DNA of 64,000 nucleotides from Clostridia bacterium (GCA_017451545.1 JAFTOB010000025.1:3721-67720), one strand, 5' to 3'. Numbered from the stretch's first letter, positions 8,666 to 52,529 are shown. Numbers and translations: made by a program. Notes: generated by a model from the letters alone, not told the origin.

Positions 8666-8669
8666 TCAT

Positions 8670-9431: not shown

Positions 9432-9537
9432 AACCGCCCTCACTGTCAAATGTTATATTTTTATTATACTTTTTTACATTGAAATTGTCAATAGAAGCTG
9501 ATAAAATAAATAAAGATCTCAATTCCCGGAGGATTTT

Positions 9538-11334: not shown

Positions 11335-11341
11335 AAAGATT

Positions 11342-11363
11342 AAGGATGACCGACGTCATCCTT
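11342..11363. terminator. hairpin between convergent genes (probable bidirectional terminator)
   Basis: AAGGATGAC-cgac-GTCATCCTT, flanked by A-rich and T-rich sequence. Confidence 0.5.
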
Positions 11364-11369
11364 GATCTT

Positions 11370-21737: not shown

Positions 21738-21773
21738 AAGCCGACCGCTTTGCGGTCGGCTTCTCTTTTTATT
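21738..21773. terminator. bidirectional terminator (also ends the minus-strand 21769 gene)
   Basis: GAAGCCGACCGC-ttt-GCGGTCGGCTTC followed by TCTTTTTATTT. Confidence 0.7.
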
Positions 21774-23931: not shown

Positions 23932-23932
23932 T

Positions 23933-37282: not shown

Positions 37283-38356
37283 ATGTTAGGCCTTAAAAAG
37301 TTTGCAGACAGTCATCTGCATTTCGAAATAAATGATTACGCTAAGGTTCAGGGGCTGCTCGACTACGTTTCGGGCATAGGCGTAACCGATGCCGCCCTGC
37401 TCTGCCTTGAAAACTATCTCGGATGTGACCGCGCGCAGATGTTCACCGCCCTCTATTTCAAGGAGAATTACAAAAAGATAAATCTTCGGGTTTTCGGCTC
37501 GCTTTACGAGTTCGACGTTTATAAGGAGATCCCCTTTGAGGATCAGCTTCGCCGCATGATGGCTATGGGCTGTGACGGAATCAAGCTGATGAACATGAAG
37601 CCCGACGTGTACAAGGCTCTCGGCCGCGGTATAAATCACCCCGACTACGAGCCTATGTTCGCGCTTCTTGAGGAGACCGGCTTCCCCGTTGTCCTTCACG
37701 CCGCCGACCCCGAGGAGTTTTGGGGCGACCCGTCGAAAATGCTTGCGGGTCAGGTTGCCGCGGGCTGGTGCTACGGCGACGGCACTTACCCATCATACCA
37801 GCAAATCTATGACGAGGTCTACGAGGTGCTTGACCGTCACCCGAAGCTGAATATAACCCTCGCCCACTTCTTCTTTCTCTCAAACGATCTCCCCGAGGCC
37901 GTTCGCGTAATGGAAAAATACGAAAATCTCCGTTTCGATCTGACGCCGGGACACGAAATGTACGTCGGATTTTCCAAGAATATCCCCGCGTGGCGCGAGT
38001 TTTTTAGGAAATATCAGCACCGTATTCTTTTTGGAACCGACTCCACGACCACCCGCCCCCACGATATCACCCAAAAGAAATACGATCTCGTGGCGCAGGC
38101 TCTCAGCTACGATGAAAACGAGTTCCCCGTGCCGAGAAATCCCGAGATCCTTGTTCGCGGACTTCATCTCGACCGCGAGCTGATCGAAAACGTCGCATAC
38201 AACAACTTTATTGACTTCGCGGGCGAAAAGACCGCTCCCGTCAATATGGACTACGTACGCGCCGAGGCCGAAAAACTGCTCGAAGCCTCCAAAGCTTATC
38301 CCGAGCTCGGCCGCACTGTCGCCCTGCTTGAGGAATTCCTCGAAAAAACCAAATAA
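37283..38356 (+). CDS. amidohydrolase-superfamily (TIM-barrel metal-dependent hydrolase) protein
   Basis: DSHLHF (HxH metal site), VVLHAADP and a late FGTDS motif. Confidence 0.7.
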   Translation: MLGLKKFADSHLHFEINDYAKVQGLLDYVSGIGVTDAALLCLENYLGCDRAQMFTALYFKENYKKINLRVFGSLYEFDVYKEIPFEDQLRRMMAMGCDGIKLMNMKPDVYKALGRGINHPDYEPMFALLEETGFPVVLHAADPEEFWGDPSKMLAGQVAAGWCYGDGTYPSYQQIYDEVYEVLDRHPKLNITLAHFFFLSNDLPEAVRVMEKYENLRFDLTPGHEMYVGFSKNIPAWREFFRKYQHRILFGTDSTTTRPHDITQKKYDLVAQALSYDENEFPVPRNPEILVRGLHLDRELIENVAYNNFIDFAGEKTAPVNMDYVRAEAEKLLEASKAYPELGRTVALLEEFLEKTK

Positions 38357-38407
38357 TCATATCAAAACCGATCCCTCCCGAATACAATGTTACTCGGGAG
38401 GGATCTT

Positions 38408-39052
38408 ATGTCGGATATTACTTATGACGCCCGACTGCACGGGCTTTTTTTGCGCTGTATGAACGCGGTCTACACTCATTCGGGAGATTCCGCCGATTAC
38501 GCCATCGAACGTTGGGGCACTCGGCTTTATCTGTTTTTTCAGTGGTCGGACGGCCTCCGTGATTGGCAGAACAATCTTGACTTCCCCTCGCGCGCTTACG
38601 AAAGCCACGGCAAAAGCTGGCGTGTCCATCGCGGATTTTTGCGGGTATGGAAATCGGTTCGGGGTGAGATCGAGGCCGCCGTTTCAAAAAGTGTGTCAAA
38701 CTTTGAAACCACGGGCATTTTTTGTGTCGGATACTCCCACGGTGCGGCCATTGCGGGGCTTGCCACCGAGGATATGGAATTCCTTTTCGGGGCACACGTT
38801 CCCGTTTGCGGCTTTGGCTTCGGCTGTCCCCGCTTTATCTGGGGCTCGCTGCCGCGAGAGGTTAAGGATAGATTTTCCCGCTTTAACGTTATTCGCAATA
38901 TTCCCGATATCGTTACCCATCTGCCGCCGTATCTGCTCGGCTACCGCCACGGCGGACCATTGGTCAAAATAGGCAAAAAAGGTAAGTATTCACCGATCGC
39001 CGCCCATTATCCCGAAGCTTATCTTGAAGAAACGAAGCCGCCAACGGGCTGA
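38408..39052 (+). CDS. class 3 lipase-like alpha/beta hydrolase
   Basis: The ATG at 38408 follows GGGAGGG. VHRGFLRVW and the nucleophile elbow GYSHGAA are present. Confidence 0.7.
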   Translation: MSDITYDARLHGLFLRCMNAVYTHSGDSADYAIERWGTRLYLFFQWSDGLRDWQNNLDFPSRAYESHGKSWRVHRGFLRVWKSVRGEIEAAVSKSVSNFETTGIFCVGYSHGAAIAGLATEDMEFLFGAHVPVCGFGFGCPRFIWGSLPREVKDRFSRFNVIRNIPDIVTHLPPYLLGYRHGGPLVKIGKKGKYSPIAAHYPEAYLEETKPPTG

Positions 39053-39074
39053 TCCGTTGGCGGCAATTTTATTT
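39037..39074. terminator. bidirectional terminator
   Basis: GCCGCCAACGG-gctgat-CCGTTGGCGGC followed by AATTTTATTT. Confidence 0.7.
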
Positions 39075-41124
39075 ACTGTGCTGCTTTGCGCAGAACGATC
39101 TCGGGGTACTTGAGGTAGCAGACGTAATCCACAAATCCCCACTGACCCTTGTAGGTGGAGGGATTCTCGGGGACTGCGGTACCAACGTACCAGTGCTCGG
39201 TATCTACGCGGTAAGAAACAACCTTACCGTCCTTTGCGGTCTCAACGATCTGGAAGCCCCAAACGTCATCCATATCGTGGAAGTCGAAGTTATAGTAAGC
39301 CTTGTATCCTGCAGGGCCGTTCATTGTTGTGTAAACAGTATCGCTGTAGGAGAAGGAACCGGTATTGATGATTCCCGCGCTCATGCCGTCCATACCCTTT
39401 TCAAGGCCTGCATAGTGGTGGTTATGTGCATCAAAGAGGCAACGTACGTTTCCGTATGCCGCAATGGTCTCGGCCATAGTTCCGAGGCCTGCCTCGCCTC
39501 TGCCGAACCAGTGAGAGCCAAGGAAGATATTGGGAGCGCTCTTGTGCTTCTCAAGCTCAGCGGTGAGCCACTCTGCATCAATGTCAGTCCAGGAAATGCC
39601 GGAGCCGCCGGAGTTAGTGCCACGGGCAGGATCGAAGGTGTCGCACATAATGAATACGTCACCGTTTCTGGGGTTGACCCAAGAATACTGTCTCTCTACG
39701 CCGAACCATTTCTTCCAAATGTTGTTGGAGTAGCCGTCGTGGTTTCCGCCGACGGGCATGATCGGAATATTCAGCTCCTTGGAGAGAGGCACGAGGTACT
39801 CGGTCCAAAGCTTATCGGCAAAACGACCGAGGTGGGTATTGTGGGGCGGGTCGTCGGTGGAAAGGTCACCGAGAACGAAGATGGCATCAAGGCCGCGCTG
39901 ATTGTACTCGTCGCGGATATCGTTGCACATCATCTCCAAACGCTCCTTGTTTGTCCAACCGCGGTACTTGTCACGGTTGACAAAGGAGTTGGGAATCTCT
40001 GCGGCGGCATAATGGATATCGGAGATAAGCAGATATCTGCCGGTGAGATCTTCCTTCTCAATGGAATACTCGGTAACGTCCCACTTGGTGGGCTGATACT
40101 CGAGAGCAGACTTATTATTGGTTGCGATGTACTTGGTGAGCTCGGCGATATTACCGGTCACAAGGAAGGTGTAGCGGGCCGAAATGGCCTTTGCCCAACC
40201 CTCTTCGTTGTCGGAAACAGCGGTCCAGCTCTCATCGTAGCCGGAGGAAGCAATATCATCGTGCTTGACTGTGGGATCAAACGGCTGTCTTGCCTCGAAG
40301 TAATTGTCGATCTTGTAGTAGGTCTTCTCAACGGTGTTGGTGATAAAGCTTGCAAGCTCGGTGTTAGCAGCATCGGCCTTGCTCCAAGAGGCGAGCTTAG
40401 CGATACCGGGAGTAACCATCATAGTGGAGTAAGCGTTGTGCTTCTTAACTGCCTCGTAAACGGGGCCGTCGATCATCGCGGGATAGGTCTTCGCGGTGGG
40501 ATCGTTGGTGAAGTAGATAAAGCACTTGCCCTTGCAGAGTGCAACAACGTCCTCAAACTTGGGAATGAGCTTGTCGGAAGTAGTTCCGTCTGCATTCTTC
40601 AGATTGAGCTTGCAGATCTGCTCATAGGTCCAATCGGAGGCTCTGCCGATCGCGGGAAGTCCCTCGTTCTTCTCTCTTGCCTCGTAGAAGTTGGTGCTGT
40701 CGGTAAGGTTGTCCTTGGGCATTGCAATGATAACGCCATCCGATGTTTTTGCAAGATAAACACCGATAGCATCGGCACCAAGCTCGATAGCGGCGCTCAT
40801 AGCCTCAAGGGAGCCTATGGGGTAATTGACGGTGTCGCCACCCCAAGCAACGCTCATGGGTCTGCCGTAGAAGTTACCTACAGCGGCAAGCTTCTCGTCA
40901 AAGTTGGTAAGCCAATCGGGCTGGGTGTAGGTGGGCTCTTCCTGTCCGGGATCGCCGCCGGTGGTTCCGGGGTTTTCGGTGGTTCCGGGTGCTTCGGTCG
41001 TGCCGGGCTTTTCGGTAGTAGCATCCGACGCGCCGTTGTCACCGCACGCGATAAGAGAAACTACGCCGAGAAGCATTACCAGAGACAAAACCATTGAAAT
41101 CAGTCTTGTGAAATTTCTTTTCAT
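39073..41124 (-). CDS. lipoprotein: degenerate GDPD-like domain plus C-terminal metallophosphoesterase (683 aa)
   Basis: The lipobox is LIAC, followed by a T/E/P/G-rich linker. The GDPD-like stretch (VAWGGDTVNYPIGSLEAMSAAIELGADAIGVYLAKTSDGVIIAM, LIPKFEDVVALC) lacks the catalytic His/Glu/Asp. MPE motifs are ISDIH, VLGDLSTDD, GGNHDG, GSHW and DAHNHH. Confidence 0.75.
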   Translation of the reverse strand: MKRNFTRLISMVLSLVMLLGVVSLIACGDNGASDATTEKPGTTEAPGTTENPGTTGGDPGQEEPTYTQPDWLTNFDEKLAAVGNFYGRPMSVAWGGDTVNYPIGSLEAMSAAIELGADAIGVYLAKTSDGVIIAMPKDNLTDSTNFYEAREKNEGLPAIGRASDWTYEQICKLNLKNADGTTSDKLIPKFEDVVALCKGKCFIYFTNDPTAKTYPAMIDGPVYEAVKKHNAYSTMMVTPGIAKLASWSKADAANTELASFITNTVEKTYYKIDNYFEARQPFDPTVKHDDIASSGYDESWTAVSDNEEGWAKAISARYTFLVTGNIAELTKYIATNNKSALEYQPTKWDVTEYSIEKEDLTGRYLLISDIHYAAAEIPNSFVNRDKYRGWTNKERLEMMCNDIRDEYNQRGLDAIFVLGDLSTDDPPHNTHLGRFADKLWTEYLVPLSKELNIPIMPVGGNHDGYSNNIWKKWFGVERQYSWVNPRNGDVFIMCDTFDPARGTNSGGSGISWTDIDAEWLTAELEKHKSAPNIFLGSHWFGRGEAGLGTMAETIAAYGNVRCLFDAHNHHYAGLEKGMDGMSAGIINTGSFSYSDTVYTTMNGPAGYKAYYNFDFHDMDDVWGFQIVETAKDGKVVSYRVDTEHWYVGTAVPENPSTYKGQWGFVDYVCYLKYPEIVLRKAAQ

Positions 41125-41167
41125 TGTAACTGCTTCCTTTCTTTATTTTCCAAAAATTTGGTTCAAA

Positions 41168-43177
41168 TTATTTAATGACGTCGGCCTTCTTGACGTCAAC
41201 GGTGACGGTACCCTCGCAGGCAATCTCTTTGCCGTTTACCGATACGGTGGCTCCCGCCTTACCGATGACGGTGAACTTACCGTCACACTTGGCAACGAGG
41301 CCGTTCTCGGTCACGTCATAGGTTCCGGGGGCGATCATCTTCTCGGATGCGCCGATGACAGCCTTGCCGTTCTCAAGCTTTACAATGGAGTAGAGTCTGA
41401 AAACGTCGGGATTGGGCAGATCAATGGAGATCTTGTCGTCGGCGTTAACAATGACACCTTCCTTAGTGAAGTACTCGTAAACCGCAACCTCGCCGTCAAA
41501 TCCGAAATCTGCGGGGCAGATATCGCCCTTGACCGCGCCATCCTCGGCATCAAGGTTGAAGGCAGCCACAAGAGTTGCACCGTTCTTTACAGAGGTGATC
41601 TTGATGGGCTTCTTCTCGGTGGTGGGATTAACAGTCAGGCAGTCGAGAGTAGGACGTGCAGGTCTTTCGGTACGGATGATAGTTCCGTCATCGAAGATCA
41701 GAGGCCAGAGGATCTCGGGCTTGGTCTGACCGTTCTTATCGCTGACGTAGATAGGACCGCCGCTGATTGCACGGCAAACGCTGTTCTTAAGGCCCTGTCC
41801 GTCGCCTGTCCACCACATATCCCAGTCATTGTAGTAATACTGACCCTGAACGAGGGAGTTAAAGGTGCACTGGAGGATATGATTTGCAAACCACTCGCGG
41901 TTCTCGGGCTGGAAGTCGCCGGAGCAACGTGCGATGGAGCTTATGTTGCGGTTGAACATATTCTCGTTAGCCATGCACATGCAGTTGATGAGGTCGACCT
42001 CACCGTCGTGTCCGAAGTATTCAATGCAGGAGTTCTCAACTGCGCCCTGAACGTTCTTGGCCATCTCGCCAACAGGTTTGCCGCTGTTATGATAATTGGT
42101 GATATAGGAGCTCTGGTTGTCGATCTTGAGGAAGTCGGCGCCGCAGTCCTTGAACCACTTTGCGATACCGTTGAAAGCCTTCTTTGCCTTATCGGCATCG
42201 GTGGAAATGAGCCACTTGCCGTTATGCTTCATAAGGCAATCCTCATATTCCTTGAAGAAATCGCCCTTCTGATCAAAGCCGCTCCAATAGCCGGTGATGG
42301 GATACCACATACCGACCTTCAGGCCCTCTGCGTGGATCTTTTCGATGCACTTTGCAAGTCCGTTCGGGAACTTCTCCTTATCGCCCTCGAAGGAGGCCAG
42401 CTTTGCACGGCCGTGGATGATTCCCCAATGGCGTCTCTCCTCGGAAACACCGACAAACAGCGGAACGTCTGCCCACATATCGTCGATAATTACCCAATCG
42501 ATGGGAAGTCCCTTATCCTTGAATTCCTTGATCTTTTCCTGAATACCGTCGTCATTTACGAAAATGTTGAAGGCATCCCAGGTGCACCAGCCGATCTTCT
42601 CGAAGATGGCGGGATACTTCTTTTCGTCACGCATCATAGTGCCGTTGTCAAGGAGCTTTGCAATATATCTCGCGATCTTCTCGATCAGCTCATAGGGATC
42701 GTTGCCTGTTGCGCAGACGAAGGAGAGCTGATTTTCGCAGGAAGAAAGCTTATCGGTGTAGCTTTCGACTACCAGAGTTACGCCGTTCTCTGCACCGCGG
42801 AGGGTGGACTTATAGGTGTTGTAGCAGACAGGGAAAGCGCAGAACCAGCTGCCGTCCTCAAGCTTTGAGAGAAGGGCCTGGGTCTGATCGGGTATGTCCT
42901 TGGTGTTCTTGGCAAAAGCCGGAGCGCACCAGAAAGCGCATCTTCTGTAGTTGGCCATGCTTTCGACAACACCGCTGAGCTCATAGGTGATCTCAATTGC
43001 GTTATTTGCCGTAAAAGTACCGCTTTCAAGCTTTGCATCAACGTATACGGCGTACATTCCGTCGTTTTCCGTGGCGCTGACCTTAACCTCGGTGTTGCTG
43101 TGTCCAAGCTCGACCTTCAAGCCCGATGTGATGATCTTTGAAGGGGCAGTCAAGCTTATAACGTTCTTAACTTCCAT
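41168..43177 (-). CDS. cytoplasmic GH36-clan enzyme of the raffinose-synthase/Sip1 (alkaline alpha-galactosidase) family
   Basis: No signal peptide. The motifs GWCTWDAF, FLKIDNQS and NDWDMWW are present. Confidence 0.75.
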   Translation of the reverse strand: MEVKNVISLTAPSKIITSGLKVELGHSNTEVKVSATENDGMYAVYVDAKLESGTFTANNAIEITYELSGVVESMANYRRCAFWCAPAFAKNTKDIPDQTQALLSKLEDGSWFCAFPVCYNTYKSTLRGAENGVTLVVESYTDKLSSCENQLSFVCATGNDPYELIEKIARYIAKLLDNGTMMRDEKKYPAIFEKIGWCTWDAFNIFVNDDGIQEKIKEFKDKGLPIDWVIIDDMWADVPLFVGVSEERRHWGIIHGRAKLASFEGDKEKFPNGLAKCIEKIHAEGLKVGMWYPITGYWSGFDQKGDFFKEYEDCLMKHNGKWLISTDADKAKKAFNGIAKWFKDCGADFLKIDNQSSYITNYHNSGKPVGEMAKNVQGAVENSCIEYFGHDGEVDLINCMCMANENMFNRNISSIARCSGDFQPENREWFANHILQCTFNSLVQGQYYYNDWDMWWTGDGQGLKNSVCRAISGGPIYVSDKNGQTKPEILWPLIFDDGTIIRTERPARPTLDCLTVNPTTEKKPIKITSVKNGATLVAAFNLDAEDGAVKGDICPADFGFDGEVAVYEYFTKEGVIVNADDKISIDLPNPDVFRLYSIVKLENGKAVIGASEKMIAPGTYDVTENGLVAKCDGKFTVIGKAGATVSVNGKEIACEGTVTVDVKKADVIK

Positions 43178-43191
43178 TCCGGTTCTTCTCC

Positions 43192-44016
43192 TTACCTTAA
43201 AGTGAAATTTTCAGGCAAGCCCTCGGTGCTTTTTATTCTGCTGACGTCGGACTTGATAATATCTGTAAACTTTTTCCCTACTCCGCTGTATTTCGCGCCT
43301 GCCATTCTGTTGTAAGGCAGAAGCTCAACGGGAGCGCCGTCGGCGATCCTTGCGATGCCTGCGAGATTTTCGTCGGTATCGGTGATGCCGGGGATCAGAG
43401 GCGTTCTGATCTTGAAATTGATTCCGCTCTTTTTGAGCCACTCGAGGTTTTCAAGTATCAGATCGTTATAAACGCCCGTATATTTTTTGTGTTCCTCGCG
43501 GTCTGCGAGCTTTACGTCGAAATAAACGGTATCGCAAAGAGAGGCAACTCTGATAAAGTCCTCCTGCTTTGCGTATCCGCAAGTCTCAATGAGAACGTGG
43601 ATGGGCTTGAGGGCCGTGATGAGCTCAACAGCGAAGTCGGGCTGCATCATCACCTCGCCACCCGAAAGGGTAACTCCGCCGCCCGTGGAACGGAAGAGAT
43701 CCTCTTCCCTCTTTATATCGGCGGCAAGCTCCTCTGCCGAGTAGAGTTTTCCTACGGCCTTGACAAGGCCCTTGGGGCAGATATGTATGCATCGGCCAAG
43801 CCCTCGACAGTCCTCGTGATCGCAGGGCTGCTTGCACAGTCCGCAATGGGTGCACCCGTTATGGGTGATGAAAAGCTCACGTTTTGGGGACAGCCCCTCG
43901 GGGTTATGGCACCAGATGCAACGGAGCGGGCATCCCTTAAAGAACACCGTGGTGCGGATGCCCGGGCCGTCGTTAAGCGAAAATTCTTTTATGTCAAAAA
44001 TGACACCCTTTGTCAT
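43192..44016 (-). CDS. glycyl-radical enzyme activating protein (radical SAM)
   Basis: CPLRCIWCHNPE, GGGVTLSGGE, and an auxiliary Cys-rich insert CTHCGLCKQPC...CIHICP. It overlaps the GRE gene by 4 nt. Confidence 0.9.
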   Translation of the reverse strand: MTKGVIFDIKEFSLNDGPGIRTTVFFKGCPLRCIWCHNPEGLSPKRELFITHNGCTHCGLCKQPCDHEDCRGLGRCIHICPKGLVKAVGKLYSAEELAADIKREEDLFRSTGGGVTLSGGEVMMQPDFAVELITALKPIHVLIETCGYAKQEDFIRVASLCDTVYFDVKLADREEHKKYTGVYNDLILENLEWLKKSGINFKIRTPLIPGITDTDENLAGIARIADGAPVELLPYNRMAGAKYSGVGKKFTDIIKSDVSRIKSTEGLPENFTLR

Positions 44017-45995
44017 ACGTCGTATTCCTGACGGGCGATAACGTGATTCTGATAATCGCGCTCAAGCTCTACAAAGTATGCGCTCCAGCCCCAGATGCGG
44101 ACAACGAGATGACCGTGGTTCTCGGGGTGGATCTGTGCGTCCTTCATAGTCTCAAGGTTGACGGCGTTGAGCTGGAGCTGGTGACCGCCGCGCTGAATGA
44201 AGTAACGTACAAGCTCGGCGACCTTCTTCTTGGACTCGTCGTCGCGGAAGGCGAGGGACGAGAATTCGAGAGTGAGAGGTCCGCCGTTGATGACCTTATC
44301 AAAGTGCTGCTTCGTGAAGGAGCGGATGACCGATACGGGGCCCTTGATCTTGGAGAACAGGTTGCAGGAGAAGTTGGTGCCGAAGGGCTCGCCTCTCAGT
44401 CTGCCGTCTGCGGTGGCGCCGGTCTCGGCGGCCTGCCAGAGGTAGTTCATAGCACTTCCCGTTCCGGCTCTGAAGATACCGCCGTAAACGTTCTTTCTGC
44501 CCTTGAAGGCGGCCGAGAAGGTATCGAGCAGATCGGCCGAAATATCATCGACCCAATCTATATCGTTGCCCATCTTGGGAGCCTCAACGCGGAGGATGTG
44601 GAGCAGCTCGGGATCGTCGTTAAAGTTGGTTCCCAGAGCGTGGAGAAGTCTTTCGGGGGTTACGGTCTTATCGTCGAACACGTACTTCTTGACGGCGGCG
44701 AGAGAATCTGTGCCGCTGGCGATGGCCGTGCCGTGAATACCGTAGTTATTGTACTTGATCTCACCCGAGAGCATATCCATCATCGGGGAGGGTACGAACC
44801 ATCTTGCCGAGTAGCAATGCTCGACCAGGCGGTTAACGTCAAATCTGATGACCTCGCGGACGTAATCCATCAGCTCGTCGAAGGTCTTGGCGGTTTCGAT
44901 CTTTGCGACGATTGCGGAGTTTACGACCTTGGAGAAGTTAAGCGAATCGAGGTTAACGATATCGTGGGAAACGCCGGGAACGATGAACTCCCAGCAAGCA
45001 GCCATGCCGTAGTTTACTGCGTCCTCGTAAGCGTAGCCGAGGTCAAGCAGTGCGGGCAGTGCGATATCGTCATTGGAATACTGAGGGAAGCCGAGGCCTG
45101 CCTCGGTCAGCTCGGTGCAGAGCTCGTAGACCTCAAGAGGAGTGTCCTTGTTTACGCGGACGTTGATCTTGGGATCGATGACCTTCAGGTTGCGGCTGGC
45201 GATAAGGCAGAGTCTGGAGAAATCCGAGAAGCTGTCACCGCCGTCGACGGTCTTACCGCCGAGCACGAGGCTCTGGCCGTTATCACCCTGCTGTACACCG
45301 GGGTAAAGGTCATTGTCGATGTTGAAGGAGAGGAAGAAGTCCTCGATAAGCTCGAGCGCGCTCTCCTTGGTCAGTCTACCGGCCTTGATATCAGCCTCGT
45401 AGTAGGGGTTCATCATAAGGTCGAAGCGACCGACGGTGTTGTGGTATGTACCCTCCATCCACAGAGAGTAGTGGAGGATGCGGAAGAACTGCATAGCCTC
45501 ACGCAGGGTCTCAGCGCCCTTGCGCGGGATCTTCGTAAGGATCTCAACGATATCCTCCCTGCCCTGCTTCTTTGCCTCGGCGCAGTAGCGGTCAGTCAGG
45601 TCAAGAATAGCGGCGATCTCCTTTTTCTGGAACTCGTTTGCAGTCTCAAGCTCCGCCTCAAGGCCGCGGGCGATGGTGCGACCGTACAGAGGGGTGAGGT
45701 TGGAGACGAAGCCCAGCTCGTGGAGCTTGTGCTTTCTGCCGATCTCCTCCCACTCGGCATCGGTATAGATCTTGGGCTGCTTTTTCACGGTTCTCATAAA
45801 GACAATCTGCTGACCCTCAAAAATGGTGGGGACCTCGTCAGCCATCATCTTGACGAATCTGTCTGCAACTCTGTCGGCATCGGATACGCCGCGAGCGCAG
45901 TAATCGGCCGCCAGCTCGCCGTTATCCACGTAATCGTGGCGGAGAGCGCGGTGAGCCTTTTCGTTAACGATAAAATTATAAAGATTCTGATTCAT
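44013..45995 (-). CDS. glycyl-radical enzyme, PFL2/dehydratase-like, unusually short (660 aa)
   Basis: GRFDLMMNPYY, QSLVLGG, GFPQYSNDD, the Cys loop GMAACWEFIVPG (Cys334-x-Glu336), and the C-terminal glycine loop HLVVRIWGWSAYFVEL (Gly636). Confidence 0.85.
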   Translation of the reverse strand: MNQNLYNFIVNEKAHRALRHDYVDNGELAADYCARGVSDADRVADRFVKMMADEVPTIFEGQQIVFMRTVKKQPKIYTDAEWEEIGRKHKLHELGFVSNLTPLYGRTIARGLEAELETANEFQKKEIAAILDLTDRYCAEAKKQGREDIVEILTKIPRKGAETLREAMQFFRILHYSLWMEGTYHNTVGRFDLMMNPYYEADIKAGRLTKESALELIEDFFLSFNIDNDLYPGVQQGDNGQSLVLGGKTVDGGDSFSDFSRLCLIASRNLKVIDPKINVRVNKDTPLEVYELCTELTEAGLGFPQYSNDDIALPALLDLGYAYEDAVNYGMAACWEFIVPGVSHDIVNLDSLNFSKVVNSAIVAKIETAKTFDELMDYVREVIRFDVNRLVEHCYSARWFVPSPMMDMLSGEIKYNNYGIHGTAIASGTDSLAAVKKYVFDDKTVTPERLLHALGTNFNDDPELLHILRVEAPKMGNDIDWVDDISADLLDTFSAAFKGRKNVYGGIFRAGTGSAMNYLWQAAETGATADGRLRGEPFGTNFSCNLFSKIKGPVSVIRSFTKQHFDKVINGGPLTLEFSSLAFRDDESKKKVAELVRYFIQRGGHQLQLNAVNLETMKDAQIHPENHGHLVVRIWGWSAYFVELERDYQNHVIARQEYDV

Positions 45996-46097
45996 AGTTA
46001 GCCTTTCTACGGTCTCATATGCGTGTGACCGTGATCAAATTGTGCAAATATTTAGATTCGAGGGACATTTCAGGCGCATTGATCTGCCCCTCATATC

Positions 46098-46126
46098 ATT
46101 TTACCATAAAGTTCTGTAAAAATCAA
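46098..46126 (-). promoter_or_regulatory. sigma-A promoter ahead of the GRE gene
   Basis: On the minus strand: TTGATT-N17-TAAAAT with a TG extension. It leaves a leader of about 95 nt before ATG 45995. Confidence 0.55.
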
Positions 46127-46154: not shown

Positions 46155-48167
46155 TTAATTCTCTTCGGCGGTGTTTTTCAGTAGCATCTCGGCATACTTG
46201 GTATAAGGAGTATAAACCGTGCTTCCGCCCGAAAAATAATATCTTCTCTCGGTGTCGATGCGGTAGCTGATGACCATATCCTCTGTTGTCTCAAGGATCT
46301 GGAAGCCCCAAAGGCAGCCCTTTGAACCGCAGGAGCAAGGTGCACCAAAATCGCCGTTAAAATCACCGTAAGAGTAAGTGCCGGTGTTTATGATGATCTT
46401 GTCCGTACCCGAAAGCTGGCGGGATTCGCTCTGGTGGTGAACGTGACCGTCAAAGAGGCAGACCACGTTATCATAGTCCCTTACAACGCTGGCAACCTCA
46501 CCGCCCGCAAAATAGTGCGAAAGCAGGAAAACGTTCTCTCTGTCCTTATATTTTTCGAGCTGCTCGGTGAGCCACTCGACGTCTATACCCGTATAGTTGT
46601 TGCCATTGGCGTAGTTGCCGTCAAACTTGGCATCGTTGCCGTCGGCGGGATCGTAAACGTCGCAGACTATGAATATATTCTGCCCGTCGTCCACGACGTA
46701 CTGACGGTCAAGGCCCGAGAATTCTTTCCACACCTCGTTTGAGTGGCTGTCGTGGTTGCCTCCCATTACGTAAACGGGGATGCCCAGCTCCTCGGACAGC
46801 GGCACGAAGAACTTTTCGTAGACCGCCTTGCAGGCGTTGACGGTATAGCCCGTCCACTTGTCATCCTCAATTCCCTCGTAGTAATCGTCGGTGGAAAGAT
46901 CACCGAGAATATAAACGGCATCAAGACCGCGAACGCTGTGCTCGTAACGGATATCGTCGCAAAGCTCCTGCATTCGCTGATCATTGGTAAATCCGCGGTA
47001 CTGTACACGGTTTTTCTGACCTGCGCGCTCAGCCATAACGTAGTGGATATCCGAAACCAGCAGGTATCTTCCCGTCAGATCCGAGGCGTTGAGAGAATAA
47101 GTAACGCCTTCCTCGCCTTCGGGGTTGTACTCAAGAGCGGAGCGGAAATTATCCGCGATCCACTGTGTGTATTCCGCAAGGTTATTTGTGATCAAAAAGC
47201 CGATATTCGAGGCTCCCGCAAGCTTCCAGCCAAAGGGATCGTCGGTAGAACCGAGCCACATAATATCCCAATCGGGGACGGTGTGAGTGAACGGCGCTCT
47301 TCCCTCCACGGGCTTTCCGCTGTCAAAGTGAGTTTCACGGATGCTGTCCATAAAGGCTGCAAGCTTCTCGTTTCCGGAGTCCTCCTGAAGCCACTCGTTA
47401 AGTCTTTCGACTCCGGGCGTTATGGCAAAGGACGAATAGGCGTTGTATCTCGCGGCCAGATCGTAAAACTGAGAGTCATAGGTATCGATGCAATTGTCAA
47501 TATTGGCAATGTAGATAAGGCACTTGCCCGCGCAGAGCGCCACCACCTGCTCAAGGGTGGGAATGATCTCGTCCGAGACCGAGCCGTCCGCATTCTTCAA
47601 TCGGAGCTGCTTGATCTGATCGTAGGTCCAATCACGAGGACGCCATATATGAGGCAACCCGTTCTGCCCTGCTTTGTTGAGAATATCCGTTGAGTCGCCG
47701 AGGGAACCCGTTGTCATAGCGACAAGAACGCCGTCGTAGGTCTTATTGACGTTAATGACAATGGCATCCGCTCCGAAAGCGATGGCGTACTTCATTGCCT
47801 TCAGCGAGCCTGCGGGATATACCGAGGCGTCGCCGCCGATCACGGCGCTCATGCTTCTGCCGTAACGGTTTGACTGTGCGGCCAGCTTCTCTTTGATATC
47901 AAACATCCACTCGGGACGGCTGACCTCAGGAAGCTCGATCGGCGTGTCTGACGGACTCGTAGTCACGTCCCCGCCGTCGGGCGCACTTGTGTCGGGAGTA
48001 TTTGCGGACGTGCCCGGAGCGTCGGTGCCCGAGGTACCCTCGGGTCCGACGGTTGTGACAGTTTCCGATCCGTCCCCCTCTCCGCCGCATGAAAGGGCGA
48101 AGGCCGAGTTTATCAGTAATGCGGCAAGCATAAGCCACACTATCAGTCGTTTTGCACTTTTATTCAT
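46155..48167 (-). CDS. lipoprotein: degenerate GDPD-like domain plus C-terminal metallophosphoesterase (670 aa)
   Basis: Trimmed to the ATG at 48167 (GAGGAG RBS; MNKSAKRLIVWLMLAALLINSAFALSC lipobox). The GDPD-like stretch is AVIGGDASVYPAGSLKAMKYAIAFGADAIVINVNKTYDGVLVAM and IPTLEQVVALC. MPE motifs are VSDIH, ILGDLSTDD, GGNHDS, LSHY and DGHVHH. Confidence 0.75.
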   Translation of the reverse strand: MNKSAKRLIVWLMLAALLINSAFALSCGGEGDGSETVTTVGPEGTSGTDAPGTSANTPDTSAPDGGDVTTSPSDTPIELPEVSRPEWMFDIKEKLAAQSNRYGRSMSAVIGGDASVYPAGSLKAMKYAIAFGADAIVINVNKTYDGVLVAMTTGSLGDSTDILNKAGQNGLPHIWRPRDWTYDQIKQLRLKNADGSVSDEIIPTLEQVVALCAGKCLIYIANIDNCIDTYDSQFYDLAARYNAYSSFAITPGVERLNEWLQEDSGNEKLAAFMDSIRETHFDSGKPVEGRAPFTHTVPDWDIMWLGSTDDPFGWKLAGASNIGFLITNNLAEYTQWIADNFRSALEYNPEGEEGVTYSLNASDLTGRYLLVSDIHYVMAERAGQKNRVQYRGFTNDQRMQELCDDIRYEHSVRGLDAVYILGDLSTDDYYEGIEDDKWTGYTVNACKAVYEKFFVPLSEELGIPVYVMGGNHDSHSNEVWKEFSGLDRQYVVDDGQNIFIVCDVYDPADGNDAKFDGNYANGNNYTGIDVEWLTEQLEKYKDRENVFLLSHYFAGGEVASVVRDYDNVVCLFDGHVHHQSESRQLSGTDKIIINTGTYSYGDFNGDFGAPCSCGSKGCLWGFQILETTEDMVISYRIDTERRYYFSGGSTVYTPYTKYAEMLLKNTAEEN

Positions 48168-48177
48168 TGCAAGCTCC

Positions 48178-48303
48178 TCAATCCACAAGATCTTCCCAAT
48201 TATCGGTGACACCCGAGCCCTCGGCCTCGGTGCTCACCGTTATAACGTCTTCCGTAAGAACGGTCAGCAGCTCGACCGTGGGCGTTTCATATTTATTCTT
48301 CAT
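48178..48303 (-). CDS. unannotated 41-aa acidic small ORF (MKNKYETPTVELLTVLTEDVITVSTEAEGSGVTDNWEDLVD)
   Basis: Hand-translated, below the track cutoff. It fills the gap between two genes. An in-frame upstream ATG at 48315 overlaps the stop of the 977-aa gene (ATGA). Its own stop lies inside the RBS region of the next gene. Confidence 0.4.
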   Translation of the reverse strand: MKNKYETPTVELLTVLTEDVITVSTEAEGSGVTDNWEDLVD

Positions 48304-48311
48304 TTTTACTC

Positions 48312-51245
48312 TCATTTCAGTTCTGTTTCTTCGAATTTCTTATACGGTGCATCGATAACAAGGCCGCTCCCGAAGGTGTAGGTTCTATCGCTGTCGATGC
48401 GGTAGGTGGATGCGCTGTCATCGGTGGTCTCGATGATCTGGAAGCCCCAGATGCATCCGTAAGCACCGCAGGTCTTGCAGACTCCGTCAAAATCACTGCC
48501 GTTGAAGCTTCCATAAGAATATGTTCCCGTGTTGACGTAGGTAACGTCCGTCGAGCTGTAAGTGCCTACAAGGTGATGGTGGGTGTGTCCGTCAAGCATA
48601 CAAATTACGTTATCATAATTTTTCACAACGGCCCCAAGCTCGGCACTGCCCCCAAAATAATGAGATCCGATGATGACCCTCTCCATATCTTTATATTTCT
48701 CAAGCTCTGCGGTGATCCATTCAATGTCCACCTTACAGGCGACGCCGTTGGCCATATTTCCGTCATCCTTCGAGCCCTTGCTGGGGTCGGTGTCATAAGT
48801 ATCCATCATTATAATAGCCGTGTCGCCGAAAACCATTGAGAACTGCTTCTCGCGGCCTGCGAATTCAAGCCATACGTCATCGGGATAGCTATCGTGGTTG
48901 CCGCCGATGATGCCGACGGGAATGCCCAGCTCATCCTGAAGAGGCTTCAGGTACTTATCCCAAAGATCCTTGCAGGCGTTTCCTCTGTAGCCGTAAGACG
49001 TTCCGATTCCCGGGTACCAGTCGTCGGTGGACAGGTCGCCGAGAACGAAAACTCCGTCAAGTCCGCGGCGGTAGTATTCCTCGCGGATATCGTTGCAGAG
49101 CTCCTCCATTCTCTGGGCGGTGGTGTAGCCGCGGAAGTCGGTTCTGTGAGTCTGTCCGGGTCTCTCGGCCAGCACGTAGTGCAGGTCGGAGACGAAGAGA
49201 TATCTTCCCGTAAGGTCGGCGCGGTTGAGAGAATAATCCACCGCATCCATCTTTTCGTTGGCGTAAGAGCCCTTCGAGTAGGTAAAGGTCTCGGTATCCA
49301 TCATCTCGGCCTCGCCGTCGGCAACGCCGTAGTATTCAACCGTAAAAATAATATCCTTATCAGCGGGAACGTCATCAATGGTAAGAGCGCAAAGGTATGC
49401 GCCATCAATGCTTATCTCATTGATGTTTCCGTCCTCATCCCTTCCCGTCAGCTTTTCGTAAACGGTGTCCACGTCATAGTACTTGGTGAAATAGACCTCC
49501 CTGCCGTATGCGGCGGTAACGCGCAGACGGAGAAGCTCGTAGTCATTGACCACGTCCTTCTTGATGGCAGAGGCAAATCGGACGGAGAACTTGCCGTTCT
49601 GCGGCTCGGTCTCCTGTACGCAGTAGATGTACGCATCGGTATTCTCTGCGGGGGCATCGGTGTCAATATCAAGGTTGCTTATATTCTTGAACACGCTCAT
49701 TCCGCTTACGATATCAGACGCGAAGGTAGAGCCGCGAACCACAACGCGGTTCGCGTTGAAGGTTCCCGTGGACTGGGTCATAGCATAACCCTTGCCCGCG
49801 ATCATTGCGGTGTTTTCAACGTAGATATCGGCGTTGTTGATGGTGATGTACATACAGTCGCGGCCTGCGGCGTCACTGACGTCGATAACGCAATCGATAA
49901 TGTCGAGATCGACCGACTTTCCGTTGTTACCCGTTCTGACCGCCGCGGCGGGAAGGGTGTTCGACGGAGGAATCAGCTCGGTGTGCATCTCGATGGTACA
50001 GCCGTCGAGCACCATCTTCTGGGATGTACCCGAGGGGCTGAGAGTATTGACGGCACAGTAATTGGTGTTGCCGTAGGTGTAAACGTTCACGTTCTTCAGC
50101 TCGGTTGTAATACCCGCGCCGTCGGCGATGATCGCGCCGCCGTTGCCCGAATGGTAGACAGTCATATCCTTGAGCACGGTATTGGTGCTGAGGAAGATGG
50201 CGCTGTAGCAGTTATAGGAGCAGAAGCCGTATTTGCCCTGACCGTCGATGGTGACGGTGCGGTTCTTGCTTCCCGCAATGGCATCGGCCGTGCCGTCGCC
50301 GCCCTTGTAATTGGGGAGAACGACGCCCGAGTTGAGAGTAACGGTAACGTCGCCGTTCGTGGCGTTGATAGCCTGAACTGCCTGACTCCAATCTGTGTAC
50401 TTAGTAGAGCCCACGGTCACGTCGCAAAGGTAGGTGGGCTTGATAGTTTCAAAGATATCCGCGCCAAGCTCGGTTCCCATACGGACGAAGTTGCCGCCCG
50501 TGGTGGTGATGGTCATAGTCTTGCCGCCGTTCTGAACGATATCGGAATTATTGGCGAAAACGGTAGTGTTTTTGAAGACCACGTTGGAGGTGGTGTTCGC
50601 GGTAGCCGTGATGGCATTACCGTGGCCGTTGCGGAAATCGAAAACGCAATCCTCAGCGGTAAAGTTTACGGTATTTGTGTCGCTGTCATTTCCGGTGCGC
50701 ACGACACCTATGGTATAGGTATTGCCCGTCTTTACCACGTTTACGTTCTTCATATTAATGTTGAACGTTCCGGAGGCAAGGGTGTTGAGCAGGCAGTACT
50801 GAATGGCATCGGTCAGCTCAACGTTGATATTCTCAAGCGTTACGTTGCACGCGGTATGGAGCTGGAAGGTGCTTCCCGTGCCCGGGTTGCCCGTCTTGAT
50901 GTTCATATTTTTAAACACAACGTTCGGGGACTCTACGTTAAATCCGTTATGGCTGTTATTTGTTACAGTGCCGCCGTTGCCGTCAACGGTAACGGTTGCA
51001 CCCTTTGTGTTTTTAATGCGGGTGCTGTTGGTTATAACGTATCCGTCCGCGATCCTGATAGTTACGTTGTTCGAGGACGCGTTGGCCTGCGCCACGGCGT
51101 CGGCCCACGTCTCGCCCGAATAAAGGGTCGAGCCTGTCACGTCGTCAACGACCGTCAGGGATGCCGCGGCCGCCGCCGTTGCGGTGAACGGGATCGCGGT
51201 TGCGAGCATTGCGCAGAGTAAAAGCAATGATATGATGCGTTTCAT
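48312..51245 (-). CDS. secreted protein with duplicated beta-helix-like module and C-terminal metallophosphoesterase (977 aa)
   Basis: The signal peptide is MKRIISLLLLCAMLATAIPFTATAAAAA. Two similar modules are seeded by TVTVDGNGGTV and TVTIDGQGKYG. MPE motifs are VSDLH, VLGDLSTDD, GGNHDS, GSHY and DGHTHHH. Confidence 0.75.
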   Translation of the reverse strand: MKRIISLLLLCAMLATAIPFTATAAAAASLTVVDDVTGSTLYSGETWADAVAQANASSNNVTIRIADGYVITNSTRIKNTKGATVTVDGNGGTVTNNSHNGFNVESPNVVFKNMNIKTGNPGTGSTFQLHTACNVTLENINVELTDAIQYCLLNTLASGTFNINMKNVNVVKTGNTYTIGVVRTGNDSDTNTVNFTAEDCVFDFRNGHGNAITATANTTSNVVFKNTTVFANNSDIVQNGGKTMTITTTGGNFVRMGTELGADIFETIKPTYLCDVTVGSTKYTDWSQAVQAINATNGDVTVTLNSGVVLPNYKGGDGTADAIAGSKNRTVTIDGQGKYGFCSYNCYSAIFLSTNTVLKDMTVYHSGNGGAIIADGAGITTELKNVNVYTYGNTNYCAVNTLSPSGTSQKMVLDGCTIEMHTELIPPSNTLPAAAVRTGNNGKSVDLDIIDCVIDVSDAAGRDCMYITINNADIYVENTAMIAGKGYAMTQSTGTFNANRVVVRGSTFASDIVSGMSVFKNISNLDIDTDAPAENTDAYIYCVQETEPQNGKFSVRFASAIKKDVVNDYELLRLRVTAAYGREVYFTKYYDVDTVYEKLTGRDEDGNINEISIDGAYLCALTIDDVPADKDIIFTVEYYGVADGEAEMMDTETFTYSKGSYANEKMDAVDYSLNRADLTGRYLFVSDLHYVLAERPGQTHRTDFRGYTTAQRMEELCNDIREEYYRRGLDGVFVLGDLSTDDWYPGIGTSYGYRGNACKDLWDKYLKPLQDELGIPVGIIGGNHDSYPDDVWLEFAGREKQFSMVFGDTAIIMMDTYDTDPSKGSKDDGNMANGVACKVDIEWITAELEKYKDMERVIIGSHYFGGSAELGAVVKNYDNVICMLDGHTHHHLVGTYSSTDVTYVNTGTYSYGSFNGSDFDGVCKTCGAYGCIWGFQIIETTDDSASTYRIDSDRTYTFGSGLVIDAPYKKFEETELK

Positions 51246-51506: not shown

Positions 51507-52529
51507 ATGAAGATAACCCTGCAGGATATTGCGCGGGAAACGGGATATTCGGTGAATACCGTTTCGCACGCCCTGAGCGGTAAGACTGACATTTCGGAAT
51601 CCACACGACAAAAAATAAAAGAGGCGGCAGACCGCCTGGGCTACGTGGGCAACTACGCCGCAAGCTCAATGCGTACCGGAAAGAGCATGACCGTAGCCAT
51701 TATCGTTCCCGATATCAAAAATCCTTTCTTTTCCGTTGTCGTTCACGAAATGGAGCAATATTTTTTCGGCAGAGGCTACACCGTCACGGTTTTCGGCACC
51801 GACGAGAGTGCCGAGCTTGAGCGCGAGGCCATCAAGGCCTGCCGTTTGCGGAATATGGACGGCATTATTATCTGCCCCACACAAAAGAGCCGTACCAATA
51901 TTTCAATGCTCCGTGAGCTGGGCGTTCCCTACCTGCTGGTCAGCCGCCACTTTGACAGCTTCGAGGATCCCTTTGTCGGCACCGACGATCTGAAGGGCGG
52001 ATATATGGCCACCCGCCATCTGATCGAGCTCGGCCACCGCAGGATCGCATTTTTCAATGCAGATCAGCGCATCTCCTGCTCCCGTGACCGCGCTCAGGGC
52101 TACCGCTCGGCACTTGCGGATGCGGATGTGGAATACGATCCGTCACTTATATTCTACCTTTCGACCACTACGCAGATAAACAGCTTTGCGGCGGTGGAGC
52201 AATTCTTTACCGATCACCCCGACTGCACCGCGGTCGTGGCCTTCAACGACATCATTGCCTTCCAGGTCATAAACTTCCTGCACCGCTCGGGACGTCGCGT
52301 GCCCGAGGACATTTCGGTCATCGGCTTTGATAATATCTGTGACGATTTCATCTTTCCTTTGCCCCTGACCTCGGTCAGTACCTCGAAAAAAGCTATGTCG
52401 CGTTGGGCCGCCCGTATGCTCTGCGATATGATGAGAGGCGAGGCCGGCCAGCATCACGCGGTGCTCAATTCCCAGCTTCTCGTGCGTGAAACCACGGCAA
52501 AGCCGCCGAAGAGCTCCGATACTGTCTGA
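51507..52529 (+). CDS. LacI family transcriptional regulator
   Basis: MKITLQDIARETGYSVNTVSHALSGK is the HTH, followed by a periplasmic-binding-protein-like sugar-binding core. Confidence 0.85.
   Translation: MKITLQDIARETGYSVNTVSHALSGKTDISESTRQKIKEAADRLGYVGNYAASSMRTGKSMTVAIIVPDIKNPFFSVVVHEMEQYFFGRGYTVTVFGTDESAELEREAIKACRLRNMDGIIICPTQKSRTNISMLRELGVPYLLVSRHFDSFEDPFVGTDDLKGGYMATRHLIELGHRRIAFFNADQRISCSRDRAQGYRSALADADVEYDPSLIFYLSTTTQINSFAAVEQFFTDHPDCTAVVAFNDIIAFQVINFLHRSGRRVPEDISVIGFDNICDDFIFPLPLTSVSTSKKAMSRWAARMLCDMMRGEAGQHHAVLNSQLLVRETTAKPPKSSDTV

Follow-up and report, generated by a model that had tools for sequence, protein, structure and literature searches.

The window analysed here, a 64,000-nucleotide stretch of Clostridia bacterium DNA (GCA_017451545.1, JAFTOB010000025.1:3721-67720), carries on its minus strand a gene for a compact glycyl radical enzyme (GRE) of 660 residues. 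The product, referred to below as the window GRE, is clearly a protein of a known kind, an eliminase-like GRE, and a distinct and widespread architectural and active-site variant of that kind. From its intact motifs, predicted fold, conservation, linkage to an activase gene and carbohydrate-related gene neighbours, we infer a type of reaction and a class of substrate. The overall explanation that we consider best, and judge to be probable, is that the gene encodes a functional member of a compact clade (~655-700 aa; signatures A-A-C-W-E-F, Q-Q-G-D-N-G-Q and R-[IV]-W-G-W-S) that cleaves a C-O bond in a carbohydrate-derived molecule.

Results

A compact, eliminase-like glycyl radical enzyme

The gene is an uninterrupted open reading frame (ORF) of 660 codons that starts with ATG (Table 1), and its product matches the Pfam models PFL-like (PF02901, E=1e-77) and Gly_radical (PF01228, E=4e-16) far past their cut-offs. 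The best sequence match in the PDB is glycerol dehydratase (GDH; 1r8w, E=6e-67), followed by diol dehydratase (E=3e-64) and, in third place, PflD (E=4e-60), while the weakest full-length match is pyruvate formate-lyase (PFL; E=6e-18). A preliminary description of the sequence had pointed to landmarks of the PFL2/dehydratase type and to a Cys-x-Glu loop, and all of these can be located: GRFD..M.PYY at residues 189-199, GFPQYSNDD at 302-310, and AACWEF at 332-337 with Cys334 and Glu336 inside it. The motif VVRIWGWSAYF holds Gly636 at a spacing of 302 from Cys334, and a direct reading of the DNA (reverse complement of 44085-44099, CGC ATC TGG GGC TGG) confirms the sequence R-I-W-G-W. With Ile for Val, this pentapeptide (residues 633-637) agrees with the published GRE fingerprint RVXG[FWY] (PMC11528403), and the Pfam Gly_radical model spans the loop. 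Cys334 corresponds to Cys433 of GDH, the conserved mid-protein catalytic Cys of GREs, and the CxE motif that it opens (C334-W-E336) is invariant in an alignment of 60 homologues with 56-88% identity to the window GRE (alignment A1). CxE is a mark of the GRE 1,2-eliminases and of newer isomerases, and its Glu hydrogen-bonds a substrate hydroxyl in every eliminase or isomerase with a characterised structure (PMC13450708).

When each NCBIfam model was used with its own curated cut-off, the window GRE reached none of the GRE cut-offs. TIGR01774, the model for the PFL2-3/glycerol dehydratase subfamily, gave 288.1 bits against 678.2 and was matched over profile positions 231-784 only. The HypD equivalog NF043068 gave 243.7 bits against 1100, PRK09983 (the best-scoring model labelled formate C-acetyltransferase) 235 against 1109, CutC 205 against 1050, and the PFL model TIGR01255 70.6 against 994.2. 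We therefore rejected PFL, HypD, CutC and the sulfopropanediol dehydratases HpsG/HpfG as identities for the protein, its equivalog scores being just ~7-22% of the cut-offs. PFL requires an adjacent Cys-Cys pair (Cys418/Cys419 in the Escherichia coli enzyme), and because the loop A-A-C-W-E offers no such pair the window GRE is not a PFL. Nor is it an aminoacyl radical enzyme (AARE), in which Ala, Ser or Thr replaces the radical Gly, since Gly636 is present and invariant. The name "pyruvate formate-lyase" that NCBI gives to the homologues P0070, P0078 and P0118 is thus contradicted by the sequence and wrong.

The preliminary description had left room for an already characterised homologue of like length and loop. 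None was found in the PDB sequence search or in NCBIfam, and a literature search made mostly without subscription journals turned up no characterisation of the compact W-G-W family, an absence that is no proof. Compact or glycosidase-linked GREs are likewise missing from a 2026 review of the superfamily (PMC13450708).

The start of the gene had been described as backed by a ribosome binding site and an upstream promoter, and truncation by mis-annotation as unlikely. On the latter point we agree. No other start codon stands between the ATG and the in-frame stop before it, Met1 is conserved in at least 90% of homologues, and their N-termini and lengths (654-673 aa) agree with the called start, which rules out both truncation and a wrong start codon. 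The former claim survives in part: GAAAGG lies 6 nt 5' of the ATG and the homologues support the start, but the promoter-like site, a 9/12 match to the consensus, comes from a scan that returned 4 sites where 3.8 are expected in shuffled sequence. Because the scan is no richer than shuffled sequence, the site supports nothing by itself, and the start is better supported by homologue N-termini and lengths than by the promoter-like site.

Long antisense ORFs mirror several real genes of the window (44010-46001, 39193-41097, 40931-42868 and 48894-51221, all on the plus strand). Because the GRE gene contains no TTA, CTA or TCA codons, its antisense strand reads without a stop for 663 codons. These mirror ORFs are artefacts of codon usage and not genes.

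Length and predicted fold

HMMER aligns residues 112-658 of the window GRE to residues 212-785 of GDH (787 aa), pairing Cys334 with Cys433. Relative to GDH, 99 residues fewer precede the Cys and 28 fewer separate Cys from Gly, which bears out the earlier statement that the missing length is N-terminal to the Cys loop and that the Cys-to-Gly spacing is 302 versus ~330. In a MAFFT alignment with canonical GREs of 770-820 aa, the deletions come in several pieces, mostly at query residues 67-142, with minor ones after residues 231, 364 and 393. An AlphaFold2 model built with 60 homologues (pLDDT 87.5, pTM 0.89) was compared by Foldseek with GRE crystal structures, giving query-normalised TM scores of 0.73-0.85. 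Propanediol dehydratase ranks first (5i2g, 0.85), followed by glycerol dehydratase, CutC and PflD. The best 45 matches are all GRE eliminases or isomerases, with the exceptions of 6xs4, an uncharacterised enzyme, and 2f3o, whose function is disputed. Superposition of the model predicts the ten-stranded alpha/beta barrel of GREs, and it indicates that this barrel is kept and that peripheral N-terminal elements are lost. By alignment and model, the window GRE is short through N-terminal trimming, not through truncation. Pfam, the PDB alignment, homologue lengths and Foldseek are in accord that it is a genuine compact GRE of the PFL2/dehydratase type, as first described.

The W-G-W loop in a large family

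A word-indexed search returned 120 close relatives, 119 of them full-length, and every one of the 119 is 654-673 aa long and carries R-[IV]-W-G-W-S together with A-A-C-W-E-F. Alignment A1 contains ~180 invariant columns, among which are A332, A333, C334, W335, E336, R633, W635, G636, W637 and S638, as well as the family-specific Q-Q-G-D-x-G-Q loop (Q235, Q236, G237, D238, G240 and Q241). When GTDB was scanned with two family peptides at one genome per species, relatives with the family signature motifs were found in at least 585 species genomes (585 confirmed among 600 matches listed). Among the matches listed, the carriers are nearly all gut or rumen Clostridia (Oscillospiraceae, Acutalibacteraceae, Christensenella and Ruminococcaceae) from the guts of ruminants, humans, birds and horses, and cultured carriers include Ructibacterium gallinarum DSM 107454 (locus L084) and isolate 1xD8-48. 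The W-G-W loop is shared by a very large family and serves as its signature; it does not set the window gene apart.

Clades were compared through an exhaustive HMMER search of representatives at 50% identity, with the sequences aligned together. Trp at the position before the Gly (Gly-1) and Trp after the Cys (Cys+1) occur together in 51 representatives, and the canonical Ala/Val pairing in 18. Both Trp residues co-occur with Asn at the GDH His164 position, Asp238 and Asn348. Median length is 685 aa in the compact superclade so defined and 771 aa in the other representatives, and the superclade consists of two clades. The W-G-W clade is marked by His185, QQGDNGQ and R509-T512-G513, and its sister clade by S-A-C-W-E-P, R-V-W-G-F-S-A-Y, Leu185 and K-L-S at 509/512/513. 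The preliminary description had proposed checking whether homologues with W-G-W loops form a clade. In a neighbour-joining tree without support values they do, with 25 W-G-W representatives in a single clade of 29 tips, the remaining 4 of which are degenerate. It had also called Trp on both sides of the Gly unusual, and this stands for one side of the two. Trp at Gly-1 is absent from every characterised GRE compared, but Trp at Gly+1 fits RVXG[FWY] and is also found in GREs of canonical length. By this comparison only the Trp at Gly-1, position X of the fingerprint, is out of the ordinary.

Some relatives within the superclade depart from the motifs. Among P0161, P0175 and P0181, sequences stop ahead of the Gly loop and are missing the Cys; in P0174 the loop is R-L-W-S-S, a Ser replacing the Gly as in seryl radical enzymes; and P0123 is apparently frameshifted at its C-terminus. 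Loss, faulty assembly or new variants of the aminoacyl-radical type may explain these proteins.

A predicted polar active-site pocket

Pocket residues were assigned from sequence alignments, with GDH numbering transferred through P0232. The substrate contacts of GDH, which we take from the 1R8W and 1R9D structures to include Ser282, Tyr339, Asp447 and Tyr640, can be followed into the window GRE, and the contact set of glycerol and propanediol dehydratase (these four and His164) is not found there. His281-Ser282 becomes His185-Asn186, and Asp447 becomes Asn348. The Tyr339 loop gives way to QQGDNGQ, which is specific to the W-G-W clade and forms the lowest-confidence part of the AlphaFold2 model (pLDDT 55). 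In an ungapped alignment of query residues 489-658 to GDH 616-785, Gln636, Gly638 and Tyr640 correspond to Arg509, Gly511 and Gly513, all three invariant in A1. His164 is the general acid of GDH (PMC13450708); at its position most canonical GREs have His, and the compact superclade has Asn throughout.

The predicted pocket residues (N99, H185, N186, the QQGDNGQ loop, N348, R509, G511 and G513) are polar or small, and their mapping to GDH predicts a polar pocket with two Gly where GDH has Gly and Tyr. Such a pocket would suit a polyhydroxylated substrate bigger than glycerol, and the likeness to the dehydratases goes no further than the catalytic Cys and Glu. That Trp635 and Trp335 co-occur so strictly suggests that the two pack together at the junction of the Gly and Cys loops, offsetting the trimmed scaffold. 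The pair would be a co-evolved packing solution and no defect.

A coupled activase gene

The activase is translationally coupled to the GRE, the GRE stop codon overlapping the activase start (ATGA). Its product scores 258.8 bits against TIGR02494 (glycyl-radical enzyme activating protein), past the cut-off of 174, and its CX3CX2C motif (C29, C33, C36) and seven more Cys are invariant among 74 family members. An activase gene adjoins the GRE gene in ~74 of 83 loci. The activase is itself compact, with 274 aa in the window and a family median of 256 aa versus 293 positions in the TIGR02494 model. Its ten invariant Cys comprise CX3CX2C, one full CX2CX2CX3C and three more. Two ferredoxin-type clusters would call for eight auxiliary Cys, against which the activase has seven.

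Recurrent carbohydrate genes around compact GREs

Neighbourhoods were counted over the 83-84 main-clade loci listed, with crude ORF calling, and carbohydrate genes are recurrent neighbours of the compact GREs. A cassette of GRE, activase and a Raffinose_syn-type enzyme of glycoside hydrolase (GH) family GH36 recurs in distant relatives, and 20-23 of ~84 loci have a GH36-like homologue no more than 8 kb from the GRE. An AraC regulator is present in 19-24 loci, usually immediately upstream and then mostly divergent. A LacI orthologue occurs in 9 loci, a Melibiase-type GH36 in 8, GH51 in 8, DUF4867 in 6 and GH127 in 4, and 31/84 loci have a member of one or more of six GH families within 8 kb. 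In a Pfam census of 134 immediate neighbours AraC is commonest (22), and the further counts include GDSL esterases (6), Raffinose_syn (5), DUF4867, GH127, Melibiase and LacI (4 each) and GH51 (3). Microcompartment shell proteins are not among the commonest families of these 134 neighbours. Within the main-clade loci, alcohol or aldehyde dehydrogenase genes are not regularly linked to the GRE (2-3 hits to short-chain dehydrogenases/reductases (SDRs) only), nor are phosphotransferase system or kinase genes, kinases being rare neighbours. No sulfoglycolysis, sulfite reductase or sulfonate exporter genes were seen in the loci examined.

The deeper W-G-W branches, 38-48% identical to the window GRE, adjoin sugar genes of other kinds. 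One member lies beside genes for a sugar transporter of the major facilitator superfamily and an aldose 1-epimerase. Elsewhere the neighbours are a ROK protein, an iron-dependent alcohol dehydrogenase (Fe-ADH) with NagB/NagA, an SDR near GHL6 and GH42 genes, or a GT2 glycosyltransferase. The contigs of P0125 and P0136 were too short to show any neighbours.

GH127, GH51 and alpha-galactosidase enzymes deglycosylate plant hydroxyproline-rich glycoproteins. A connection to extensin and hydroxyproline was considered as an idea only and dropped, as no gene for pyrroline-5-carboxylate reductase and no other hydroxyproline gene lies nearby.

Further genes stand beside the GRE in individual loci. A gene of the L-fucose isomerase family is divergently upstream of the GRE in the related loci L001 (6665-8431) and L003 (7843-9645) and was seen in no others. 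In L019 a DUF4867 cupin gene (9999-10649) sits between the GRE (8001-9977) and the activase (10649-11401), and in L057, L076 and L079 DUF4867 likewise lies between the two or directly after the activase. A DUF4867 structure has been solved (9GYY) with no activity found, and its authors propose a role with ketoses or aldoses; most members occur in aldose/ketose neighbourhoods with fucose-isomerase-family and FGGY genes, and the family occurs in sulfoglycolysis gene clusters too (PMC11968277).

The locus within the window

In the window, the GH36-like gene begins 14 nt past the activase gene. The encoded glycosidase has no obvious signal peptide, and in the PDB it is closest to Arabidopsis RS6 (7exf, E=6e-49), in alignment with which K-x-D and R-x-x-x-D-F can be read; these we take, from GH27/GH36 enzymes, to be the catalytic nucleophile and acid/base. 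The probable regulator of the locus is of the LacI family. Its orthologue in L094 (62% identical), a locus whose GRE is 88% identical to that of the window, lies directly upstream of the GRE gene and divergent from it, and in the window two more lipoprotein paralogues separate the LacI gene from the GRE gene.

Downstream of the GH36-like gene lies a gene for a lipoprotein with GDPD and metallophosphoesterase domains, and a 40%-identical homologue occupies the same place in L094. Among the loci compared, this protein is absent from all but the window and L094 and is thus a lineage-specific addition. Accordingly, the idea of GDPD/metallophosphoesterase lipoproteins as general partners of the GRE, with glycerol in view, was rejected. 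The window holds four paralogous secreted lipoprotein-like metallophosphoesterases (21769-24063, 39073-41124, 46155-48212 and 48312-51245, all on the minus strand), of which two also have GDPD domains; they contain Thr/Gly/Pro-rich linkers. No kin of the four were seen in the other ~84 GRE loci.

On the opposite strand, genes for a class-3 lipase (38387-39052, plus) and an Amidohydro_2 protein (37283-38356, plus) adjoin the locus and were not found in related loci. Elsewhere the window encodes an RHS-repeat protein (59854-61914, minus), a protein of 646 aa whose N-terminal domain is an ADP-ribosylglycohydrolase (24864-26804, minus) and one of 770 aa (29669-31981, plus) in which Pfam matches nothing beyond two 4Fe-4S ferredoxin motifs set apart from each other.

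Table 1. Features of the GRE locus, in window coordinates.
Feature	Position	Strand	Basis
Compact GRE, 660 aa	44013..45995	-	ORF, Pfam, PDB match, AlphaFold2/Foldseek
Gly loop R633-I-W635-G636-W637, predicted glycyl-radical site	44085..44099	-	DNA read, homologues, alignment A1
Cys loop A-A-C334-W335-E336-F, predicted thiyl-radical Cys and general-base Glu	44985..45002	-	Alignment to GDH G-C433-V-E435-P
Asn99 at the GDH His164 position	45699..45701	-	MAFFT with canonical GREs, P0232 anchor
QQGDNGQ loop Q235-Q241 in place of the GDH Tyr339 loop, predicted polar pocket wall	45273..45293	-	HMMER alignment
Strand R509-A-G-T-G-S-A515 at GDH Q636/G638/Y640	44451..44471	-	Ungapped HMMER alignment
RBS-like (ribosome binding site) GAAAGG, 6 nt 5' of the GRE ATG	46002..46007	-	Sequence read
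Promoter-like TTGATT-17-TAAAAT, TG ahead of the second hexamer	46098..46126	-	Consensus scan, weak
Radical S-adenosylmethionine (SAM) activating enzyme, 274 aa	43192..44016	-	NCBIfam TIGR02494
Cytoplasmic GH36-like glycosidase (Raffinose_syn/Sip1), 669 aa	41168..43177	-	Pfam PF05691, E=3e-59
LacI-family regulator, probable regulator of the locus	51507..52529	+	Pfam
Secreted lipoprotein-like GDPD and metallophosphoesterase protein	39073..41124	-	Pfam

Discussion

We regard it as very likely that the window gene encodes a working GRE that is activated at Gly636 by the product of the adjacent activase gene. The co-translated radical-SAM activase would take an H atom from Gly636, and the resulting glycyl radical would be handed to Cys334. 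According to the mechanism that we propose, the Cys334 thiyl radical would then take an H atom from a hydroxyl-bearing carbon of the substrate, Glu336 would deprotonate that hydroxyl, and the ketyl radical would eject the neighbouring oxygen substituent, leading either to dehydration or to a ring-opening isomerisation like that of YbiW/PflD, after which Cys334 would give the H atom back. That Cys334 and Glu336 act in this way, as thiyl radical and base in cleaving a C-O bond beside a hydroxyl-bearing carbon of a carbohydrate-derived substrate, is what we judge to be likely. A free monosaccharide, an alditol or an aglycone is suggested alike by the mutarotase and transporter genes, by regulators of the sugar type and by the glycosidase partner in the cytoplasm. 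Most likely the substrate would be neutral and derived from a carbohydrate, whether a free aldose or ketose, an alditol or an aglycone. A co-encoded glycosidase, the GH36-like enzyme in the case of the window, would free it from glycosides in the cytoplasm, with a LacI or AraC regulator that responds to sugar in control.

Comparison with known systems puts this proposal in context. The best sequence and fold matches are GRE 1,2-eliminases that cleave C-O bonds, the GDH of Clostridium butyricum (1R8W) and the propanediol dehydratase of Roseburia inulinivorans (5I2A/5I2G). With these the window GRE has in common the ten-stranded barrel, the Cys-x-Glu loop, the C-terminal Gly radical domain, the GRFD..PYY and G(L/F)P.Y.NDD motifs and an activase of the TIGR02494 type. 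At ~24% identity, however, it is ~130-180 aa shorter, mainly through N-terminal deletions, and has Trp at both Cys+1 and Gly-1 where the dehydratases have Val and Ala, respectively. Moreover, its family has glycosidase and sugar-regulator genes as neighbours rather than dha/pdu-type or microcompartment genes. YbiW/PflD (8ID7, 8ID0 and 8YJO), the isomerases of anhydroglycolysis that act on 1,5-anhydroglucitol-6-phosphate and 1,5-anhydromannitol-6-phosphate, are the only characterised GREs with sugar-ring substrates and share with the window GRE a link to carbohydrate catabolism. The CxE Glu of YbiW/PflD deprotonates a ring hydroxyl, and C-O cleavage follows (PMC13450708). PflD matches the window GRE with a Foldseek TM score of 0.85, but YbiW/PflD are 765-810 aa long, have canonical G-C-V-E and R-V-A-G-Y loops and use phosphorylated substrates. 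Closer in architecture is the sister compact clade (~640-745 aa, ~30-35% identical to the window GRE), which has the same Asn at the His164 position, Asp238, C-W-E, Asn348, Trp at Gly-1 and reduced length. It differs in having Leu for His185, K-L-S for R-T-G at 509/512/513 and Phe after the Gly, and in the loop that reads QQGDNGQ in the W-G-W clade it lacks this motif and has D-T for D-N. Finally, the AAREs (Fu et al. 2024, PMC11528403) are like the W-G-W family in being uncharacterised, PFL-like and eliminase-like proteins with an adjacent activase, mostly from metagenome-assembled genomes of gut Eubacteriales, but the window GRE and all its close relatives, unlike the AAREs, keep the radical Gly.

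Several observations weigh against C-O cleavage on a neutral sugar-derived substrate. The class of substrate is deduced solely from gene neighbourhood, and that neighbourhood is heterogeneous: the GH36-like gene is present in just ~1/4 of the loci, and many loci contain only the GRE and activase genes in unrelated surroundings. Across the 83-84 main-clade loci no enzyme for processing a carbonyl product (aldehyde or alcohol dehydrogenase, kinase) is regularly linked. The general acid His164 of GDH is missing, which bears on how the leaving group would be protonated. The pocket assignment rests on sequence alignments, and the QQGDNGQ loop is modelled at a pLDDT of 55. Lastly, invariant Arg509 falls, by offset arithmetic only, at the position of Arg678 of isethionate sulfite-lyase, and it could mean that the substrate is anionic.

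This last point lies at the heart of one alternative, in which Arg509 anchors a sugar phosphate, as used by YbiW/PflD, a sulfonated sugar or other sulfonate, or a uronic acid. Arg678 of isethionate sulfite-lyase binds the sulfonate (PMC13450708), and Arg509 is invariant in the W-G-W clade, with Lys or Arg in its place in the sister clade. The equivalence of Arg509 and Arg678 is, however, deduced from published residue numbers, a constant offset from the radical Gly and the ungapped C-terminal alignment to GDH, not from a direct alignment or a structure, and no counterparts were identified for the other two members of the sulfonate-binding triad, an Arg and a Gln. Genes of ROK and FGGY kinases appear in a few loci, but kinase genes are rare neighbours overall. 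Similarly, DUF4867 occurs in sulfoglycolysis clusters (PMC11968277), but the loci examined have no genes for sulfoglycolysis, sulfite reductase or sulfonate export, so that we keep a sulfoquinovose link through DUF4867 and Arg509 as a low-probability rival and consider an anionic substrate in general to be unlikely. We find it quite unlikely, too, that the enzyme is in function an orthologue of the glycerol and 1,2-propanediol dehydratases, acting on glycerol or a short diol, for example on glycerol that the neighbouring GH36-like and GDPD proteins release from galactosylglycerol or glycerophosphodiesters. These dehydratases do give the top PDB sequence matches (E=6e-67 and 3e-64) and the best Foldseek match, the CxE motif is present, genes for GDPD-domain lipoproteins and a lipase flank the window operon, and an Fe-ADH gene adjoins the GRE gene in one deep relative. 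Nevertheless, the GDH contacts are replaced one after another (His164 by Asn99, Ser282 by Asn186, the Tyr339 loop by QQGDNGQ, Asp447 by Asn348 and Tyr640 by Gly513), and the score against the PFL2-3 model stays at 288 bits where 678 are called for. The gene context does not fit well either, as alcohol and aldehyde dehydrogenases are not regularly linked, microcompartment shell genes are not among the commonest neighbours, and the GDPD genes are limited to the lineage of the window.

Two further possibilities carry very little weight. The first is that the protein is a decayed or non-catalytic paralogue whose bulky Trp residues around the Gly prevent storage of the radical, decay being a prospect already raised in the preliminary description. 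Trp at Gly-1 is indeed absent from the characterised GREs compared, and the superclade includes relatives (P0161, P0175 and P0181) without the Gly loop or the Cys. Against decay, W-G-W, CxE and ~180 positions are invariant even in relatives of 56-60% identity, the reading frame is intact, the family is present in at least 585 species genomes, and a dedicated activase with all of its cluster-binding Cys conserved is retained alongside, in ~74/83 loci. These features indicate a family under selection and make decay very improbable. Scarcely credible is the function implied by the public names of P0070, P0078 and P0118 and by the Pfam PFL-like domain, namely that of a pyruvate formate-lyase, given the single Cys followed by x-Glu (A-A-C-W-E) in place of a Cys pair, the 70.6 bits against 994 for TIGR01255, and the rank of PFL as the weakest full-length PDB match (E=6e-18).

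If C-O cleavage on a neutral carbohydrate-derived substrate is indeed the function, one attractive but doubtful possibility is that the W-G-W GREs would be the first to act on an unphosphorylated free monosaccharide, its alditol or the aglycone of a glycoside. They may in that case, through a radical dehydration or a ring-opening isomerisation, feed a new anaerobic route for sugars from plant glycans in Clostridia of gut and rumen, and the Trp pair together with the loss of the His would constitute a distinct design of the radical core on a minimal scaffold. The existence of cultured carriers makes the hypothesis testable.

GREs carry out chemistry that anaerobes cannot otherwise achieve, and each newly assigned member has opened a route of gut metabolism, from choline and hydroxyproline to sulfonates and anhydro-sugars. 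The compact W-G-W family is large, with at least 585 species genomes, has no assigned function and is consistently misnamed "pyruvate formate-lyase". The surprise is moderate, as specialists in GREs are already aware of many unassigned clusters. Nevertheless, this is the smallest PFL-like GRE architecture met in our survey, and such a minimal scaffold makes it a good subject for learning which parts of a GRE are dispensable and how the residues that flank the Gly and the Cys tune the storage and transfer of the radical. Should the substrate prove to be a free plant-derived sugar, a radical step would be added to the carbohydrate fermentation of the main fibre-degrading lineages of the gut. What gives the finding its value is a large family built on a minimal scaffold, with altered residues in its radical core and a link to plant-glycan sugar metabolism in major gut fibre degraders.

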